A stretch of 31,056 nucleotides of DNA from Escherichia coli (lineage in GTDB: Bacteria; Pseudomonadota; Gammaproteobacteria; Enterobacterales; Enterobacteriaceae). Where the stretch lies: the NCBI RefSeq assembly GCF_003334335.1, contig NZ_QOWQ01000047.1, one strand, 5' to 3'. The position numbers and the translations under genes were made by a program. Within the stretch, counting starts at the first letter, position 1; every line of letters begins with the position of its first letter. Positions 464 to 12,731 of the stretch are shown one piece after another. The notes beneath the pieces were generated by a model. It was not told where the DNA came from, made no database searches, and saw nothing but the letters and a program-made list of their open reading frames with translations.

Positions 464-907
464 CTAACTTAGCAGTAGGTCCGCTGTGAGCGAGGTGCAG
501 AAGTTCGCAATTGTTCTCGCAACCAAGGTAGCTAAAAAACACGGCAGGCAAATGTCTACATGTAAGATACACTTGCTATTATCAAGAATTTTAGTCCTGA
601 AGCATTTTAACTTTCTTCTCATGTTTTTATATTCGCCATTTATCCATTCAGGTTCTTCCCGAATAGCTGATCGCATACAGTGTGTTAGGATATCATTCCA
701 GAAAGCTGCAATCGCATCTGCAAACTCTATAAACTGTGTTTCTGTAACCTCTAGTTGCTCATGACGTAGACTAAATCTGACGGTGTCACCACGATGTAGC
801 ATCAGCATTGCGGTGAGCCGCCGGGCATGGTTTTTGTCATTTGTTTTATGGATAGTTTTCTGCATCAGGTGCCGTTCGGCTCTGGGTATTGGTACTATGA
901 TCGGCAT
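464..907 (-). pseudogene. Chimeric ORF. The first ~43 aa (MPIIVPIPRAERHLMQKTIHKTNDKNHARRLTAMLMLHRGD) match the N-terminal HTH of IS630-family transposases. The remaining ~100 aa are unrelated, so this is a truncated or remnant transposase fused to other sequence.
   Basis: The N-terminus matches the IS630 transposase start from memory (MPIIAPISRDERRLMQKAIHKTHDKNYARRLTAMLMLHRGD...). The ORF is far shorter than the ~340-aa full transposase and its C-terminal part is non-transposase. Confidence 0.45.
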
Positions 908-1289: not shown

Positions 1290-2021
1290 TCACCTGCCAT
1301 CCAGTAGACGCCCCGGCCCACGACTGCAACCATAATTACGTTGCCCGGAACCGTTATGCAACTTCGTTTCATTTTTCACGAGATAACGGGCTCTCTCCAG
1401 GGCTTTCTGCACCGCTTCCTTGTCACCACGCGTGACCCAGAGCACAGCGGATCCACCAGACTTTTTGTCAGAAGCCTTCCGGGTATCAGAACACCCACTT
1501 GGTAAAGGCGTGTCATCGGAAGAAGGGGGAGCAGCAGGTGATGTCGGTTTACGGGAAGGAGTCCACCTGGAAAAATGGACCAGCCCATCACCCAGCCAGG
1601 GCTCAATACGCAGGGCGCTGCACCATGCCTCCTGGATCAGCGTCGCCAGCGAAGAAGAAACGGTGAAATCCCCGAGCGAGCACCAGGTATCTTTGTTGAG
1701 CAGTAATATCACGTGATAATGTTTCCTGCCATACATCTTGCCGAACTCCCGGCACCAGAAATAACCCAGGCTGGTTGCATGCACACGCTGATTGGCACAT
1801 CTTTTTTTCCGCTGGTAAGCCTGAATTTTGGCTTTCAGGGATTCGAAAAAACGAGAAATCACCGCTGAATCCGGATCGGGCTCCATGATGGTGACAGGCA
1901 TATACTCAGGGAAACGTAAATCCACCCGGATTAACGAGACGGCACGGTGTTGCACCAGGGCACTGTTGAGAATACTTTCAAAACGGGATAACCAGTAATC
2001 ATTGTGTATTGGTTGATTCAT
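1290..2021 (-). CDS. YagK/YfjJ-family protein (inovirus Gp2-like, CP4-type island protein), 243 aa. It carries an internal Pro/Ser-rich insertion relative to the ~208-aa K-12 paralogs.
   Basis: The motifs LIRVDLRFPE, VISRFFESLKAKIQ, YFWCREFG, YHVILLLNKD and the C-terminal RYLVKNETKLHNGSGQRNYGCS match the YagK/YfjJ pattern. RBS ggaga lies upstream of the ATG at 2021. Confidence 0.7.
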   Translation of the reverse strand: MNQPIHNDYWLSRFESILNSALVQHRAVSLIRVDLRFPEYMPVTIMEPDPDSAVISRFFESLKAKIQAYQRKKRCANQRVHATSLGYFWCREFGKMYGRKHYHVILLLNKDTWCSLGDFTVSSSLATLIQEAWCSALRIEPWLGDGLVHFSRWTPSRKPTSPAAPPSSDDTPLPSGCSDTRKASDKKSGGSAVLWVTRGDKEAVQKALERARYLVKNETKLHNGSGQRNYGCSRGPGRLLDGR

Positions 2022-2690
2022 GATGAGAGATCTCCGTTGATTTGGATTGACTTCACATCATTAATCGCCGCGGTAAAACTTTACGGCATCCCACCAATGA
2101 GCAACGCCAATAGCTCCTGATTAAAACGGAATGAATCGTCCCGTAACGAAAAGATAATCCTGCACACGACAGCAAAACGTAAAACAACAGCATGAATGAG
2201 CTAAATGTCTAAAGAAAAACTGCCTTTTCACATTATTTTTCAGCGAGTAATCATACCAGCATCCCTAACATACGAAATCGCATCGTGATCGATCGCTGAT
2301 TCGCCGAACAACTGATCGAATACACCGGAATCTGCACTAACATCCTGATGGGTAACGGAAGACTAAAAAACCAGTGTTCTATTGATTGCACGGAATGCCT
2401 GTGCGCTGGCCTGACCAGTAAGCACAATTCTACGAGTAGTAAGATATCTACTCCAAAACCATGCGCAGTAGCCACCATATGTTGCCAGGGTGAAAAATAA
2501 GCTCAGAGCTATAGGGGAGTAATTCCCGTTAATGTCATCGCCGTACCTCAATCAGCTCACAAACTGGCTGAAACGTTAAGCTGAGGCCTTTATTCTTCAG
2601 ATGTATTTTCCGGTTTACCTGTAAATTATCTTCTGATATTTATCACATTAGTAATTGTGCTGATTATCTACATACTTCAAGGTCTGAAAT

Positions 2691-3221
2691 ATGAAGCTAA
2701 CAGAAGAAAGTCTGAATCTAGTCATTGACATCCTGAATGATTTGATCTGTGAAGGAAAAATGCTGAACGATGTGGAGCGCAGATCTCTGCTCAATGCAGT
2801 TATGGCAATTACAGCGGTAAAAGAACGTTCTGTCGTATCTGTATCATCCCGAAAAGAGCAAAGTAAGAAGGAGAAGAAGGAAAGAGAGATCGATCCTCGT
2901 TTCCCAAATGCTGGTGTGGCATGGAATGAGGCAGACGAGAGTTTATTGCGAGATGTTCTGGAGGATGTACCGGACGATGAAATTGGTAAACACCTTTTCT
3001 GGCTGGCAGAGAAACTAGGGCGAACCCCGTACAGTGTAGCCTGTAAAGTCAGACAAATTAAGAAATTACCTGCAGAATGGAAGGATCAATTTCGTAAAAT
3101 CTCTGACAGGATCCGTAGTTCTGGAATGTCAGTCAGTGAATATCTACAACGCCAGGGACTGTTAAGCCCAGAGTCAGGGGAAGAAAACAATCCTGTCAGT
3201 CATAACAACAATGTAGCTTAA
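2691..3221 (+). CDS. Hypothetical 176-aa protein. The N-terminus is helical, the middle is Lys/Glu-rich, and the C-terminal segment resembles a Myb/SANT-like DNA-binding motif (AGVAWNEADESLLRDVL...GKHLFWLAEKLGRTPYSVACKVRQ).
   Basis: Clean ATG-to-stop ORF of about 43% GC. The W-x2-E-E-x2-L...W-x-x-I-A-x-x-L-x-x-R-T-x-x-x-C-x-x-R pattern is typical of Myb/SANT repeats. I do not recognise a named family. Confidence 0.5.
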   Translation: MKLTEESLNLVIDILNDLICEGKMLNDVERRSLLNAVMAITAVKERSVVSVSSRKEQSKKEKKEREIDPRFPNAGVAWNEADESLLRDVLEDVPDDEIGKHLFWLAEKLGRTPYSVACKVRQIKKLPAEWKDQFRKISDRIRSSGMSVSEYLQRQGLLSPESGEENNPVSHNNNVA

Positions 3222-3236
3222 TCCTGAAGAAGATGA

Positions 3237-3272
3237 ACAGTTTATACTCTTTAAACTGTTCCCTTAATTTTA
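3237..3272 (+). terminator. Candidate intrinsic terminator after the 176-aa gene: aacagttta-(tactctt)-taaactgtt followed by cccttaatttt.
   Basis: 9-bp inverted repeat with a 7-nt loop and a T-rich tail 16 nt after the stop codon. The stem is AT-rich, so it is marginal. Confidence 0.3.
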
Positions 3273-3740
3273 GAAAAACAGTTTGTGTAAGTGCATGCTC
3301 CAACATTCTGAAGGCGTTATTTCTTACAATACATCATAATCATTGGCAGATCCTCATCTGAATCAAAACACCACAACCAATCATCACACTTTTTCTGAAA
3401 AGAGCCTTATGATGAAGATAATCACCTTACGCTGAGAAAAAACACCAGGGCCAGTTAATCACCTTATCAATCTCGCCGTTACAAAATCATCCATAAGCCA
3501 TTTAACAGTGTTATCGCAAACTCACAGTAAATCGCATCAGGTTACCTCAATCGGATTTGAGTTAATTCACTGGGCTTTACGTAAAGATACTTTTCTCAAG
3601 CTAACGTCGAAACTCGAAATCTAAGGAAAGGTTAAACGTAACATCAGTAAAATCGAATAGCAGATTGATTGCTTAAACAGAAAGGTTTTACAGCAGCATT
3701 AAACTGATTTAGTTAACGTAAAGATTTACTAAACTGGATG

Positions 3741-3885
3741 TGTATAGCAATGCTTAACGAAAACACTTGTAGAAGTGTTTATGAAAATACGTGTATGTCT
3801 GGTAAAACACTTAGTAGAAAATACGTGTATAACACTTACTGAAATGCTTAGTAAAAATACTTAGTAAAATACGTGTATATAGTAT
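3741..3885. repeat. Cluster of imperfect direct repeats (unit about ACACTTAGTAGAAAATACGTGTAT) plus a perfect 8-4-8 palindrome AAACACTT-GTAG-AAGTGTTT at 3761-3780. The core AAAATACGTGTAT occurs at 3784-3796, 3818-3830 and 3866-3878, spaced 34 and 48 bp apart. It sits inside a 1.16-kb AT-rich noncoding gap between two convergent genes.
   Basis: Read directly from the sequence. No ORF of 60 aa or more occurs on either strand between 3222 and 4384. Confidence 0.6.
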
Positions 3886-4384
3886 CATACCGACATTCTC
3901 AACATCTTCAGACTTCCATACATACTGGGTGTTAATTTTTCACTTTTACAGCCAGCATGGAGTTTTCTGTCCTAAAAACAGAGCAGATTTACTCTGGAGT
4001 TATTTTCCTGTTCACGTATTCAGTACAGCAGAAATCCCGTGATAACGAGACAGTAAACCATCGTAATCAGCGTCTGTAACTCCATCGCTTTACCCCAGAA
4101 AAGTTAAGCCATATAATGTGAGGGATATAAGTCGTCGTATCCGGTAAGTACAGATAACCACAACATAAGCTCATTCAGTAAATTTTATCTCTGAACAAAC
4201 GACTATGGCATGCTCATTTATACTATTCATAAGAAAGTGTGATTATCTGTAAGCATTAACCATCAAATCATATAACCATACTAAACTGGCGGATCATCAG
4301 CACCATTAGCAGGTAACTTATTGAAATTTTATTATGTGTTTTTTGTTGATAATTAATATGCAATATGAATTTGATATTTTAGAA

Positions 4385-5608
4385 TCATGAACACCATTTA
4401 AAATTACCATCATTAATATCATATAAAAATATATTTTTACTAAAACATGAATTGTATATATTTATTAGCTCAGGAAAATTATCAGGGTTCACCTTCAAAT
4501 TAACCTGAATGTTATGCTTAATTTCACCCAGTAGTTCTTCATGTGTGGATTTTATTATCCCATTATTATAATCGATAAATGCACACATGTTTTTTATGAA
4601 TTCAAAACCTTTTCCTGTATACAGTTTAATGAATGCCACCAGAGCAAACATTTCAAGATGTAGCCATAATGCTACGTTAGTTTTTTGCAAAGTATAAAAA
4701 ATTGAATTCGCCACTTTTTTACTTATTGCTCTTTTATACTGTGATCGAGCAAGATTCAGTAGCGGAAGCTCTCGTTCAATAAATGAATGTGAAAAGACTG
4801 GATAAATTGATGTCGGAAACCTTTCAGGCCTTATGATATTTTCTATTTCCACCATAAATCTATCCATAGAAAGAAAGTCACTTTCTTTTTTTATTCTGGT
4901 ATAGAGACCGCCTTTATTCCTTTCTGAGGTTTGTTTTCGTGCTATCCCCCCTAACAATTTCTCTAATTGTTTATTTATCTTCGTATAATTAAATACAACC
5001 ATTCTTCTTATCATCCTCGGAAGGATAATAATATCAGTGCTTGAATCACTTGAACGGCAATTATTATTTATCCATGCAACTTCAAGTTGCAGTATCGGAA
5101 CATTAACTTTTCTGGGGTGAATATCACTCTGATATCGTTTTTTGTATGCGTTTTCATTAAGATATTCTCTGCTGTAGAGAAACTTATAGCAATATAATCT
5201 GATAATATCTTTTATGTAAAATTTAAATAGTTCACCTGTAACAGATATATGTTTTCTGCTCAGTAACTCCTGTGTATTAAGCCATTCCCGTGACCGAAGC
5301 ACACCCTTGTGAAAACTTTTTCTTACTTGCTTTGAGGCACGGCATTGATGTAATATTTTTGCGTCCTCAATAATTCTCTTTCCCGTTTTATTTTTTGCAG
5401 CATCTCTTACTCCATAAAATATCTCCCGGTCCAGACTTTTGTCATATTTACTGATTATACGACAAATATTCCTGACCCGACGATTCTCTTTATTTCGCTT
5501 CCATAGCTTATAATGATCATCGCATAACCTTAAGGCATTTGCCTCATCAAATTCTGAAACAGGATTACTGCATTTTTTATTCCGACAAATACCTTTGTTT
5601 TTAGCCAT
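4385..5608 (-). CDS. Orphan hypothetical protein, 407 aa, very Lys/Arg/Asn/Ile-rich and very AT-rich. The N-terminus has a Cys/His motif (C-x4-C-x17-C-x2-H: CRNKKCSNP...CDDHY) suggestive of a zinc ribbon. No family recognised. It is a candidate accessory, abortive-infection or defense-type cargo gene.
   Basis: Long uninterrupted ORF with an ATG at 5608 and a GA-rich RBS (gggaagaagagt) upstream. GC content is far below the flanking genes, roughly one-third by eye (not computed). It is located in the variable slot of a CP4-like island. Confidence 0.6.
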   Translation of the reverse strand: MAKNKGICRNKKCSNPVSEFDEANALRLCDDHYKLWKRNKENRRVRNICRIISKYDKSLDREIFYGVRDAAKNKTGKRIIEDAKILHQCRASKQVRKSFHKGVLRSREWLNTQELLSRKHISVTGELFKFYIKDIIRLYCYKFLYSREYLNENAYKKRYQSDIHPRKVNVPILQLEVAWINNNCRSSDSSTDIIILPRMIRRMVVFNYTKINKQLEKLLGGIARKQTSERNKGGLYTRIKKESDFLSMDRFMVEIENIIRPERFPTSIYPVFSHSFIERELPLLNLARSQYKRAISKKVANSIFYTLQKTNVALWLHLEMFALVAFIKLYTGKGFEFIKNMCAFIDYNNGIIKSTHEELLGEIKHNIQVNLKVNPDNFPELINIYNSCFSKNIFLYDINDGNFKWCS

Positions 5609-5708: not shown

Positions 5709-7214
5709 ATGCCATTCAGCAATTCTTCCCTCTCCGCGCAAGTGAAATCATATCTGACGTTTCTTCCTGAAGAAATACGCCAGAAAATCCTTGAACATCT
5801 CCACGGTGTTATTCATTACGAGCCCGTGATTGGCATTATGGGTAAATCCGGCACCGGCAAGAGCAGCCTGTGTAATGCCATTTTTCAGTCCCGTATCTGC
5901 GCCACGCATCCCCTGAACGGCTGCACCCGCCAGGCTCATCGTCTTACCCTGCAGCTCGGTGAACGCAGAATGACGCTGGTCGATCTGCCCGGCATTGGTG
6001 AAACACCGCAGCATGATCAGGAATACCGAGCGCTTTATCGTCAGTTACTGCCGGAACTGGATCTGATTATCTGGATCCTGCGGAGTGATGAACGTGCGTA
6101 TGCTGCCGATATTGCCATGCATCAGTTTTTACTGAATGAGGGCGCAGATCCCTCGCGCTTTCTGTTTGTTCTCAGCCATGCCGATCGCATGTTTCCTGCT
6201 GAAGAATGGAATGCCACAGAAAAATGCCCGTCCCGTCACCAGGAACTCTCACTGGCGACAGTAACAGCCCGGGTGGCCACCCTGTTCCCTTCATCATTTC
6301 CGGTACTCCCCGTAGCCGCGCCTGCAGGCTGGAACCTTCCAGCGCTGGTGTCACTGATGATCCACGCGCTGCCACCACAGGCAACCAGCGCAGTTTATTC
6401 ACATATCCGGGGGGAAAACCACTCTGAACAGGCCCGGAAACACGCACAACTGACTTTTGGTGAAACCATCGGGAAAAGTTTTGACGACGCCGTTGCCCGT
6501 TTCAGTTTTCCGCCCTGGATGTTACAGCTTCTGCGCAAAACCCGGGACCGCATTATCCACCTGCTGTTCACTGTGGCATCCTTCTCCACCTCCGCCGGTA
6601 ACTGGGCTGTCAAAAACGGCTGGTGCCAGACCATGACGGAAGATGGTCAGGCGCTGGTAATGCTGAAAAATGGCACGATTGGTATTACCGGCCTGATGCA
6701 GGGATGCCCGAATGGCGTACAGACGCTCCTGGGCAGCCGTATCAGTATTAACGGTAACCTGATCCCCACATCACAAATGTGTAATCAGCAGACGGGATTC
6801 AGGGCTGTTGAGGTGGAAGTCGGACAGGCGCCGGAAATGGTCAAAAAAGCCGTTCACTCCATAGCAGAGCGTGATGTGTCCGTTTTACAGGCATTTGGTG
6901 TACGAATGGAATTCACCCGCGGTGATATGCTGAAGGTCTGTCCGAAATTTGTCACATCACTTGCCGGTTTTTCCCCGAAACAGACACCCGCCATTAATAA
7001 AGATTCCGTCCTGCAGGCTGCCCGGCAGGCATACGCCCGGGAATATGACGAGGAAACAACAGAAACCGCTGATTTTGGCTCTTACGAAGTAAAAGGCAAT
7101 AAGGTTGAGTTTGAAGTGTTCAATCCTGAAGACCGTGCGTACGACAAAGTGACCGTCACGGTTGGTGCTGACGGTAATGCCACCGGTGCCAGCGTTGAAT
7201 TTATCGGAAAATAG
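5709..7214 (+). CDS. Island GTPase of the YeeP/YfjP/YkfA family (50S-ribosome-binding GTPase-like; P-loop [16 protein letters not shown]). It continues in frame for about 210 additional C-terminal residues of unknown origin, giving 501 aa versus ~287 aa for the K-12 paralogs.
   Basis: Residues 1 to about 285 align closely with my memory of YfjP/YkfA ([90 protein letters not shown]). The ORF then runs a further ~650 nt with coding-like composition. Confidence 0.8.
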
Positions 7215-11983: not shown

Positions 11984-12093
11984 TCCCGAGTGTGATTCCC
12001 TTTCGATATCAAAAGGGACTGCGGGTATAATTGAGGGTATATTTTTAATCAAACCAAATAAATTATATTAATATCAATATGATAAAAGAAATT

Positions 12094-12115
12094 TTCGATT
12101 CCGAGTCCGGCACCA
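12094..12115 (+). repeat. tRNA-Phe 3'-end fragment (TTCGATTCCGAGTCCGG-CACCA, one G shorter than the canonical pheU/pheV 3' end). This is the attachment-site direct repeat marking the island boundary.
   Basis: 22-nt match to the 3' end of E. coli tRNA-Phe (…GGTTCGATTCCGAGTCCGGGCACCA). Upstream of it is AT-rich island DNA. Downstream is the native pheU terminator and then cadC. Confidence 0.7.
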
Positions 12116-12126
12116 AATTCATATAA

Positions 12127-12157
12127 ACGGACCTCCACGGAGGTCCGTTTTTCGTTT
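12127..12157 (+). terminator. Rho-independent terminator (acggacctcc-ac-ggaggtccgt plus TTTTCGTTT), the native pheU-type terminator retained next to the att repeat.
   Basis: Perfect 10-bp GC-rich stem with a 2-nt loop followed by a T-run. Confidence 0.6.
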
Positions 12158-12731
12158 CAGGACGCCACGATTTAAGCGTTCTGCCTCCAAATCAATTCTA
12201 CCGAACTCAACCAGATTCTCCCCACATCACCAGCAATTTGCGGGCATATCCCAATTCGGGAAAATTTGTTCCTGAGCTATAGCACTAACTGACGTGAAAT
12301 GTCGTGCGGCCCCGTGATGCTGTTGAACGTCAAATGACGTCATCAGGAGCGTAACGCATCCATAAAGCACAACACCGGTCTGAACGGCGACTGATGAGAT
12401 TTTCTGAATGAGAACAAAGAGAAATGTATCAGTTCGCTTGCTCATGCAAAGACTAACAATCCATTAAAATAGTAAGTGCTCCGGACAATTTTCCATGGAT
12501 TATTTTCTGAACATTTTTCTTTGGCAAAGATGATGAATTTTGATGGTAAGGAATATTACTTCTGGTTCTCAGTAAAATCCTTTCGTAATACTATGTAATC
12601 AAGAAGTTTATGGCTGGTAAAAATAACGTCTTGCATTCACCAATAATATGTAAATAAACCCATCTATAGATGGTAAAAATAGGTTGTGGCAATTATCATT
12701 GCATCATTCCCTTTTCGAATGAGTTTCTATT

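Follow-up and report, generated by a model that had tools for sequence, protein, structure and literature searches.

The stretch analyzed here, called the window below, comprises 31,056 nt of the Escherichia coli chromosome (assembly GCF_003334335.1, contig NZ_QOWQ01000047.1). Its positions 1 to ~12,000 form the right portion of a tRNA-Phe-type pathogenicity or genomic island that adjoins cadCBA. The island encodes a 243-aa protein of the 'inovirus Gp2/YagK-YfjJ' type (1290-2021, minus strand; Gp2 below) and a 176-aa protein (2691-3221, plus strand), followed by a gap (3222-4384), a gene for a 407-aa protein (4385-5608, minus strand) and then genes for a YfjP/YeeP-like GTPase, DUF932, an antirestriction protein, RadC, DUF987, YeeU/CbtA and DUF4942. 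A first-pass annotation, made from the letters of the window alone, had drawn attention to the gap as a long stretch free of open reading frames (ORFs) between two convergent genes. Both points hold for the window, as the ORF listing contains no ORF of 60 aa or more between the 176-aa and 407-aa genes and the longest ORF within the gap is 42 aa. The gap has a GC content of 32-38%, and that of the flanking genes ranges from 25-35% (407-aa gene) to 51-58% (GTPase gene, from ~5800). Comparison with related islands shows that the gap is a mosaic of three unrelated non-coding segments, the middle one of which is the constant neighbor of the Gp2 gene and can tentatively be read as an origin-like DNA element. 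The features on which this rests are the following:

1290-2021, minus strand: gene for the 243-aa 'inovirus Gp2/YagK-YfjJ' protein, HUH-type and origin-binding nickase-like, the constant neighbor of the backbone block
2022-2198: Gp2-proximal upstream region common to all island variants, the probable Gp2 promoter and leader
2199-3351, plus strand: inserted or replacement module of ~1.15 kb with the 176-aa gene (2691-3221) and a hairpin terminator (3235-3261)
3352-~4007: backbone non-coding block (segment b), located 5' of the gene for the 243-aa Gp2
3356-3373, plus strand: 18-mer ATCTGAATCAAAACACCA, the longest run that is invariant in 12 variants, at the left edge of the backbone block
3738-3889, plus strand: repeat array with GTGTAT(A) boxes, a 13-mer present three times, an 8+4+8 inverted repeat and an AT-rich tandem repeat with a 13-bp period
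3873-3935, plus strand: best-conserved segment, just right of the array, with a -10-like TATAGT and CCGACATTCTCAAYATCTTCAGAC
3979-3996, both strands: short terminator-like hairpin CAGAG...CTCTG with T-runs at the right edge of the backbone block
~4024-4384: segment c, the right third of the gap, a 3' flank that accompanies the 407-aa cargo gene
4089-4117, plus strand: promoter-like TTTACC-17-TATAAT (10/12) within segment c, kept in all five islands with the 407-aa gene
4385-5608, minus strand: 407-aa cargo gene, one of at least four alternative cargo sets in this slot

Sixteen loci (given L numbers below) were retrieved and 12-13 variants were aligned. The gap has matches in ~1,860 of 5,426 complete E. 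coli genomes, and the matching parts differ between genomes. Its left 130 bp (segment a, 3222-3351) are supplied by the module at 2199-3351 and consist of the 3' flank and the terminator of the 176-aa gene, the latter a terminator-like hairpin of 10 pairs followed by a T-run. This module is present in the window, L001-L003, L011 and L085 and absent from L004-L007 and L073-L078, which have ~290 bp of unrelated sequence instead. On its other side, the Gp2-proximal region shows 78-87% identity in most of the insert-less loci (a shorter 82% match in L006), and its first 60 nt show essentially no variation, even in the most distant variant L084 with an overall identity of 72%. Segment c has homologs only where the 407-aa gene is present (five loci) and cannot be aligned in other cargo classes; between the window and the others its divergence (K, substitutions per site) is 0.32, against a synonymous divergence (dS) of 0.06-0.09 for the 407-aa gene itself. 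The promoter-like site at 4089-4117 in this segment, on the plus strand, is the best sigma-70-like site of the whole gap, and a transcript from it would run antisense to the 407-aa gene at its 3' end.

In all 16 E. coli island loci, the backbone block adjoins the gene for the 243-aa Gp2, whatever cargo follows. Its variants are 72-99% identical to each other and it has matches in about a third of the complete E. coli genomes. Most related islands lack the 176-aa gene, and there the non-coding stretch between the start codon of Gp2 and the cargo gene measures 1.45-1.8 kb. That the gap is unusually long is thus largely accounted for by three non-coding flanks that were joined at a hotspot of cargo exchange, which illustrates that long ORF-free gaps can arise simply when the non-coding flanks of swapped modules are juxtaposed. 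The functional core of the gap, if there is any, is the backbone block. Insertion sequences were encountered twice in this region: an IS5 inside the gap-homologous region of strain HNSQ2209 (H1, NZ_CP137737.1) and an IS1 directly after the block in strain EH08-18-36 (L090 4108-4805).

The constant neighbor of the block, the 243-aa Gp2, matches the Pfam families YagK_YfjJ_C and REP_ORF2-G2P, and its H-x-H (HUH) and YxxK motifs are kept across paralogues. The best matches of its model are the origin-binding nickase domains of parvovirus NS1 and adeno-associated virus (AAV) Rep and the origin-binding domain of RepB. HUH origin-binding domains of these proteins recognize short direct repeats beside a dyad. 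The gene is intact in all variants and the protein has thousands of database members. The window allele is the most divergent of 12, with a ratio of non-synonymous to synonymous divergence (dN/dS) of ~0.33-0.55 against the others, compared to 0.1-0.46 among the rest, which hints at relaxed constraint on Gp2 in the lineage of the window. The next gene downstream of Gp2 belongs to the YfjI family in three of the inspected related loci (L002, L075 and L090). The L002 copy matches DUF3987, which serves as the 'primase' marker of PICMI satellites (minimalist chromosomal islands that are phage-inducible; PMC10803314). The window lacks a YfjI/DUF3987 gene beside Gp2, as the corresponding positions 1-1246 hold unrelated sequence.

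A paralogous Gp2 gene of 188 aa, present on the same islands, has an ORF-free upstream region of its own (1.27 kb):

L001 2413-4250 (also L079 3944-6050 and L082 27012-29799): locus of the 188-aa 'inovirus-type Gp2'

More than 1.2 kb upstream of this gene is without an ORF of 50 aa or more, ~87% conserved over 1 kb and furnished with direct repeats AAAGACARAGTGAATA. The repeat array lies ~860-985 bp from the start codon, a distance as found for the array of the 243-aa type. The 188-aa Gp2 gene heads a run of genes on the same strand that continues with a 190-aa protein, AlpA and a 182-aa YagK-like protein.

Within the backbone block, the first-pass annotation had pointed to a perfect palindrome followed by three directly repeated cores. 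The palindrome is present at 3761-3780 as AAACACTT-GTAG-AAGTGTTT, with 8-bp arms and a 4-nt non-palindromic spacer, and its left arm is part of a repeated AAAACACTT motif. It cannot bear the weight that was put on it. At least one perfect inverted repeat with 8-bp arms occurs in 22% of dinucleotide-preserving shuffles of the gap, so that the dyad alone is unremarkable. Besides the window, several variants (e.g., L007, L073, L074 and L077) have a perfect dyad, and its right arm varies in related islands (AATTGTTT, GGCTGTTT, GATTGTCT and AATTATTT) with no compensating change. The cores fared better: AAAATACGTGTAT occurs exactly at 3784, 3818 and 3866 and has no further copy in the 31-kb window even at 2 mismatches. 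Three exact copies of a 13-mer are far beyond chance, which points to local duplication. As for the half-motifs, ATGCTTAA/G was found at 3750 and 3844 as described, and ACGTAAAGAT lies at 3579-3588 and 3716-3725, one base away from the 3580 and 3715 given before. Tandem Repeats Finder reports an array with a 13-bp period at 3804-3869 (5.2 copies, consensus AAAATACTTAGTA). GTGTAT boxes occur at 3740, 3791, 3825 and 3873, in and just upstream of this tandem array and all on the plus strand. Across 13 variants, the array as a whole measures 140-243 bp and contains 0-3 AAAYRNGTGTAT units and 2-5 GTGTA boxes.

Conservation within the block is patchy, with islands of 85-95% identity at ~3352-3390, 3615-3680 and 3873-3935 in the 72% background of L084. 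The segment 3873-3935, at 82-90% identity even in this variant, contains TATAGT at 3878-3883 (TATAAT in L005, L006, L077 and L084) without a good -35 element, followed by the near-invariant CCGACATTCTCAAYATCTTCAGAC at 3890-3913. The invariant 18-mer ATCTGAATCAAAACACCA at the left edge is longer than expected from permutation (P=0.003), and two invariant runs of 12 or more positions were seen versus 0.12 expected (P=0.006). On the island, AAAACACC is confined to 3365 and 3439. In the hairpin at 3979-3996, TTTACTCTGGAATTATTTT is nearly invariant, but other variants have a stem of just 4-5 bp.

We tentatively propose that the backbone block (3352-4007) is a cis-acting, origin-like DNA element of an island replication module, possibly a vestigial one, and regard this as a possible rather than a probable reading. 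The first-pass annotation had offered a menu of readings in which origins and operator arrays stood beside structured RNAs and sites for a partner protein. The first two stay viable and the last two are not supported. The origin gains support from the HUH Rep-like gene at 1290-2021, which had not been named as the cognate gene and which adjoins the block in every locus. Further indications come from the array. Of the 9 positions of the DnaA-box complement TGTGNATAA, the GTGTATA boxes match 8-9, and such DnaA-like boxes number 1-6 per block on one strand, versus ~0.5 expected, and 0-1 on the other. They are thus about five-fold above expectation and strand-biased. L073, L075 and L077 contain a perfect TGTGTATAA, equal to TTATACACA, which we take to be the sequence of the oriC R2 box. 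The boxes alternate with about five AT-rich 13-bp repeats in a region with a GC content of 32%, and these 13-mers would be an easily unwound segment.

An excised form of a related island exists among plasmid records. Of 72,556 plasmids only three match the block, each carrying the island itself, and one of them is pRHB40-C01_2 (CP057032.1; L081-L083), which is circular, has 62,375 bp and no replicon type, and is 'non-mobilizable' according to MOB-suite. At its junction (L083 1058-1428), the DUF4942 end is followed by TTCGATTCCGAGTCCGGGCACCA and an integrase gene, without a complete tRNA gene; we take TTCGATTCCGAGTCCGGGCACCA to be the 3' end of tRNA-Phe. Judged from this junction, pRHB40-C01_2 is a precisely excised pheU/V island that was recorded as a separate replicon. 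It carries the 243-aa Gp2 gene together with the block, three Gp2-type genes in all, fimbrial genes (fae) of the F4 (K88) type and astA. The record is compatible with episomal maintenance. The window contains no tRNA gene, and the attachment (att) repeat formed by the tRNA-Phe 3' end was not found anywhere in it, even at 3 mismatches. The right boundary of the island beside cadC (11984-12731) appears degenerate. Therefore, the island copy of the window can probably not excise precisely.

In the mechanism that we infer, the integrase would excise the island, the Gp2-like protein, alone or together with host DnaA, would bind the repeats of the block, and the AT-rich 13-mers would melt or a strand would be nicked nearby. 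The resulting circle would be copied and perhaps passed on to a transfer or packaging machine. A stronger version of this reading, in which the block and the HUH Gp2-like protein (with the DUF3987 protein where present and possibly DnaA) form a working origin and the archetypal tRNA-Phe/Leu pathogenicity islands of E. coli replicate as episomes after excision, seems doubtful to us. The cargo of E. coli islands of the pheU/pheV/leuX type comprises virulence genes, among them pap and fae, and candidate defense genes, and such islands are regarded as non-replicative once excised (PMC3202238). A working origin would run contrary to this view, and through it excised islands could be kept, amplified or passed on to a transfer or packaging system. 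The combination of a Rep-like gene, an origin-like block and a recorded excised circle would give a clonable candidate for the persistence and spread of such islands.

Several observations weigh against an origin. Pathogenicity islands of uropathogenic E. coli are held to lack a replication origin (PMC3202238), and the one circular record may stem from a sub-population of excised circles instead of from replication. The window itself contains only two DnaA-like boxes versus 0.47 expected per strand, neither of them perfect (8/9), so that the enrichment is marginal here. Its repeats are spaced irregularly at 19/51/34/48 bp, unlike classical iterons, and the array is 1.7 kb away from Gp2. The decay of the right palindrome arm without compensation leaves no conserved nick hairpin evident, such as an HUH-Rep origin would use to present its nick site. 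Folding of the single-stranded DNA into a Frpo-like or cruciform structure is unremarkable (z -1.8 to +0.15). Phased iterons of 17-22 bp were not found, nor was a RepA-type gene among the annotated neighbors or the Pfam-scanned flanking proteins, and consensus sites for integration host factor (IHF) and GATC clusters are not enriched. The evolutionary evidence is not favorable either. The pairwise K of the block (0.06-0.26) about equals the dS of the adjacent Gp2 (0.03-0.27); with a K/dS near or above 1 the block diverges about as fast as synonymous sites of Gp2, which indicates no global constraint. Gp2 and the block recombine independently (between L004 and L006, the dS of Gp2 is 0.035 and the K of the block 0.24), hence no co-variation of protein and site is evident. 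The array is the most variable part of the block, with the lowest identity to L084 and a copy number of 0-3 units, and conservation of the GTGTAT core does not significantly exceed that of its flanks (P=0.42). A position weight matrix (PWM) of the 243-type unit scored no better on the 188-type array than on shuffles (P=0.4); statistically, neither likeness nor difference of the two arrays is informative and therefore their homology cannot be claimed. Distant YfjJ/YagK genes of other genera have upstream gaps of only 200-460 bp. Taken alone, conservation neither demonstrates nor excludes a function of the block.

With the origins of HUH Rep proteins (the double-strand origin of pMV158 RepB, the tetranucleotide repeats bound by parvovirus and AAV Rep, and the Ff intergenic region) the block shares a dyad with direct repeats on the same strand in AT-rich DNA upstream of an HUH gene. 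In Ff phages, the intergenic region that contains the origin is located immediately upstream of gene II, and the double-strand origin of pMV158 consists of direct repeats and a nick hairpin. The block differs in that it lacks a conserved nick hairpin or nick consensus. Its repeats are unevenly spaced and differ in number, and the array is 0.75-1.7 kb away from the gene for the putative binding and nicking protein. Theta origins that depend on DnaA (oriC; pSC101, P1 and F ori2) resemble it in their DnaA-box-like 9-mers of one orientation, interleaved with about five AT-rich 13-bp repeats, but the block has no 17-22-bp phased iterons, winged-helix RepA gene, GATC cluster or consensus IHF site, besides the marginal box enrichment in the window. 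Phage satellites, i.e., Staphylococcus aureus pathogenicity islands and phage-inducible chromosomal islands (SaPI/PICI, with pri-rep-ori), P4 (alpha, ori/crr) and PICMI (int-alpA-primase), are comparable in that the island type is tRNA-integrated, an excised circular form exists and an AT-rich repeat segment lies beside replication genes. Related islands carry an integrase, an AlpA-family protein and a DUF3987 'primase', none of which is in the window. However, at 60-100 kb these islands are loaded with virulence cargo and have no genes for capsid redirection or packaging, and the block is absent from 50,697 phage records and present in one of 2.9 million viral contigs. To our knowledge, its repeats are unrelated in sequence to the iterons of P4 or SaPI. 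With regard to transfer origins (oriT), the HUH protein may be a Rep-type relaxase; the plasmid similarity is limited to the three island carriers and the excised circle was typed as non-mobilizable. ToxI and retron msr/msd loci share with the block only the short direct repeats or dyad in non-coding DNA within a defense-rich island slot. ToxI has tandem units of equal length (~34-36 nt) and a constantly linked downstream toxin gene, whereas neither is present here and the cargo varies. For a retron, a reverse transcriptase would be needed, of which there is none among the annotated genes of related islands, the Pfam-scanned flanking proteins or the loci examined, and there is no conserved structure or Rfam retron match. 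The block is also absent from the two K-12 segments compared (CP4-57 and CP4-6) and from ~60 YagK/YfjJ loci of other genera. Searches of the literature on YagK/YfjJ, on islands with DUF932/RadC/CbtA and on circular intermediates of pheU/pheV islands turned up no account of the block.

The evidence also allows for explanations other than an origin. As the null case, the region could be functionless, a neutral spacer in a decaying and recombining island backbone in which slippage generated the repeats as an AT-rich minisatellite. The near-equality of block K and neighboring dS would be expected then, as would an array that is hypervariable in length and copy number and diverges fastest, the lack of motif-specific constraint and the unconserved palindrome. 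The demonstrated mosaic origin of the gap with a length owed to cargo exchange, the IS5 inside the block in one strain and the IS1 behind it in another, and the missing tRNA-Phe att repeat of the window's island fit as well. Still, bacterial genomes usually show a strong deletion bias, but 1.45-1.8 kb is kept beside an intact and selected Gp2 gene in 11 insert-less variants and the block persists in about a third of complete E. coli genomes. The excess of invariant runs over the permutation expectation, the patchy islands of conservation, the strand bias of the boxes and the analogous ORF-free region with an array at equal distance from the paralogous 188-aa Gp2 gene also speak against a neutral spacer, which we consider somewhat unlikely. 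The main functional rival is an activator-dependent outward promoter, with the array providing operator or activator sites for an island regulator (e.g., of the AlpA family or WYL/helix-turn-helix type) and transcription firing to the right, into the cargo slot and the string of genes from the GTPase to CbtA. The last repeat abuts the conserved -10-like hexamer at 3878-3883, behind which the block is best conserved over 40-60 bp, and a good -35 is lacking, as expected if the promoter depends on an activator. The first cargo gene downstream is on the plus strand in two cargo classes, the 188-type array of L001 also ends in GTGAATATAAT, and the islands encode regulators of the AlpA and HTH/WYL families. 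A sigma-70 PWM scan over the aligned variants, however, found no strong conserved promoter in the backbone block, where no site scores above 7.6 in any variant; a weak minus-strand candidate, TTGAGA-17-TATACA, is present in 12 of 12 variants with scores of 4.9-6.3. In addition, the 407-aa gene downstream in the window is on the opposite strand, so that the transcript would be antisense, operator copy number is not maintained, the core is not preferentially conserved and no candidate regulator co-varies with the array. An outward promoter is therefore possible, yet unlikely.

Much less probable is a non-coding RNA, either a small RNA of ~115 nt on the plus strand from ~3890 to the hairpin at 3979-4006 or a leftward RNA containing the repeats (type III antitoxin, retron RNA or antisense regulator). 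It could draw on the -10-like element at 3878-3883 combined with the hairpin and T-run at 3979-4006, on the conserved sequence downstream of the former, on the fact that the hairpin also reads as a terminator on the minus strand, and on weak minus-strand promoter candidates at ~3879 and ~3889 in 8-12 variants. The folding and covariation analysis that had been recommended for this gave no support. Sliding-window RNAalifold on 12 variants and both strands yielded a consensus of only -2 to -14 kcal/mol per 120 nt, with z-scores significant only where the DNA repeats are themselves palindromic, and 0 of 17 predicted pairs in the fold of the array alignment showed a compensatory change. Rfam 15 had no match at gathering thresholds in the whole window, and positions 2000-4450 searched at E up to 5 returned two noise matches (E ~4). 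The irregular spacing of the repeats, the stem of the hairpin, which is down to 4 bp in other variants, and the absence of a constantly linked reverse transcriptase, toxin or nuclease gene likewise speak against an RNA. The idea that the 176-aa or 407-aa protein has its cis-acting site or RNA partner in the repeats, or that the gap is a decayed protein-coding gene, has hardly any probability left. The repeats are near both genes in the window, and the 176-aa protein has a sub-threshold match to the ribbon-helix-helix protein NikA, which binds oriT (E=0.011). But the block occurs with or without the 176-aa gene, which is missing at 13 of the 16 inspected loci, and with four cargo sets, so that the partnership with an adjacent orphan or Myb-like protein that had been suggested is contradicted by synteny and appears largely refuted. 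A coding remnant, named in the first-pass annotation as the finding that would overturn its own view, was not detected. Six-frame translations had no Pfam match, a concatenated six-frame query against 5.8 billion protein clusters had none at E<=0.01, no long ORF exists in any of 13 variants, and indels among the variants are not multiples of three. The only small ORF that recurs, one of 40 aa at 3957-4079 with a conserved-looking start, was rejected, as its codon 5 is a TGA in L077 and L078 and its sequence diverges at the end of the backbone.

The two 'orphan' genes beside the gap are better regarded as exchangeable cargo. Other islands have genes for proteins of 262+316 aa, 339 aa or 376 aa instead of the 407-aa gene in this slot, which is bounded by the backbone block and the GTPase gene. 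The coordinates are the following:

Window 4385-5608: 407-aa cargo gene
L005 4707-6442: cargo
L076 4288-5307: cargo
L077 3996-5126: cargo

The 407-aa protein has no match in Pfam, PADLOC, NCBIfam or PHROG, and its gene has a dN/dS of 0.2-0.3. For the 176-aa protein there are sub-threshold matches only, to phrog_323 (E=0.003) besides the NikA-like one, and PADLOC, NCBIfam and PHROGs were uninformative for the 176-aa, 407-aa and other cargo proteins alike. None of the alternative cargo sets matches PADLOC; the Pfam search, without a match, covered the 407-aa protein. In K-12, the equivalent slot of CP4-57 (yfjJ to yfjP) holds the defense systems AbpAB and RnlAB. Since the hotspots are equivalent, the cargo genes of the slot can be considered candidate new defense genes.

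At the left end of the window, positions 1-1246 are unrelated to the related islands, which carry YfjI or a restriction endonuclease there, and contain a 147-aa ORF (464-907, minus strand) with PHROG matches of unknown function only. On the other side of the cargo slot, the GTPase ORF of the window (5709-7214) has 501 aa, compared to 294 aa in related islands, where it is trailed by separate HTH/WYL and 225-aa genes. This difference suggests a deletion or fusion in the island of the window.

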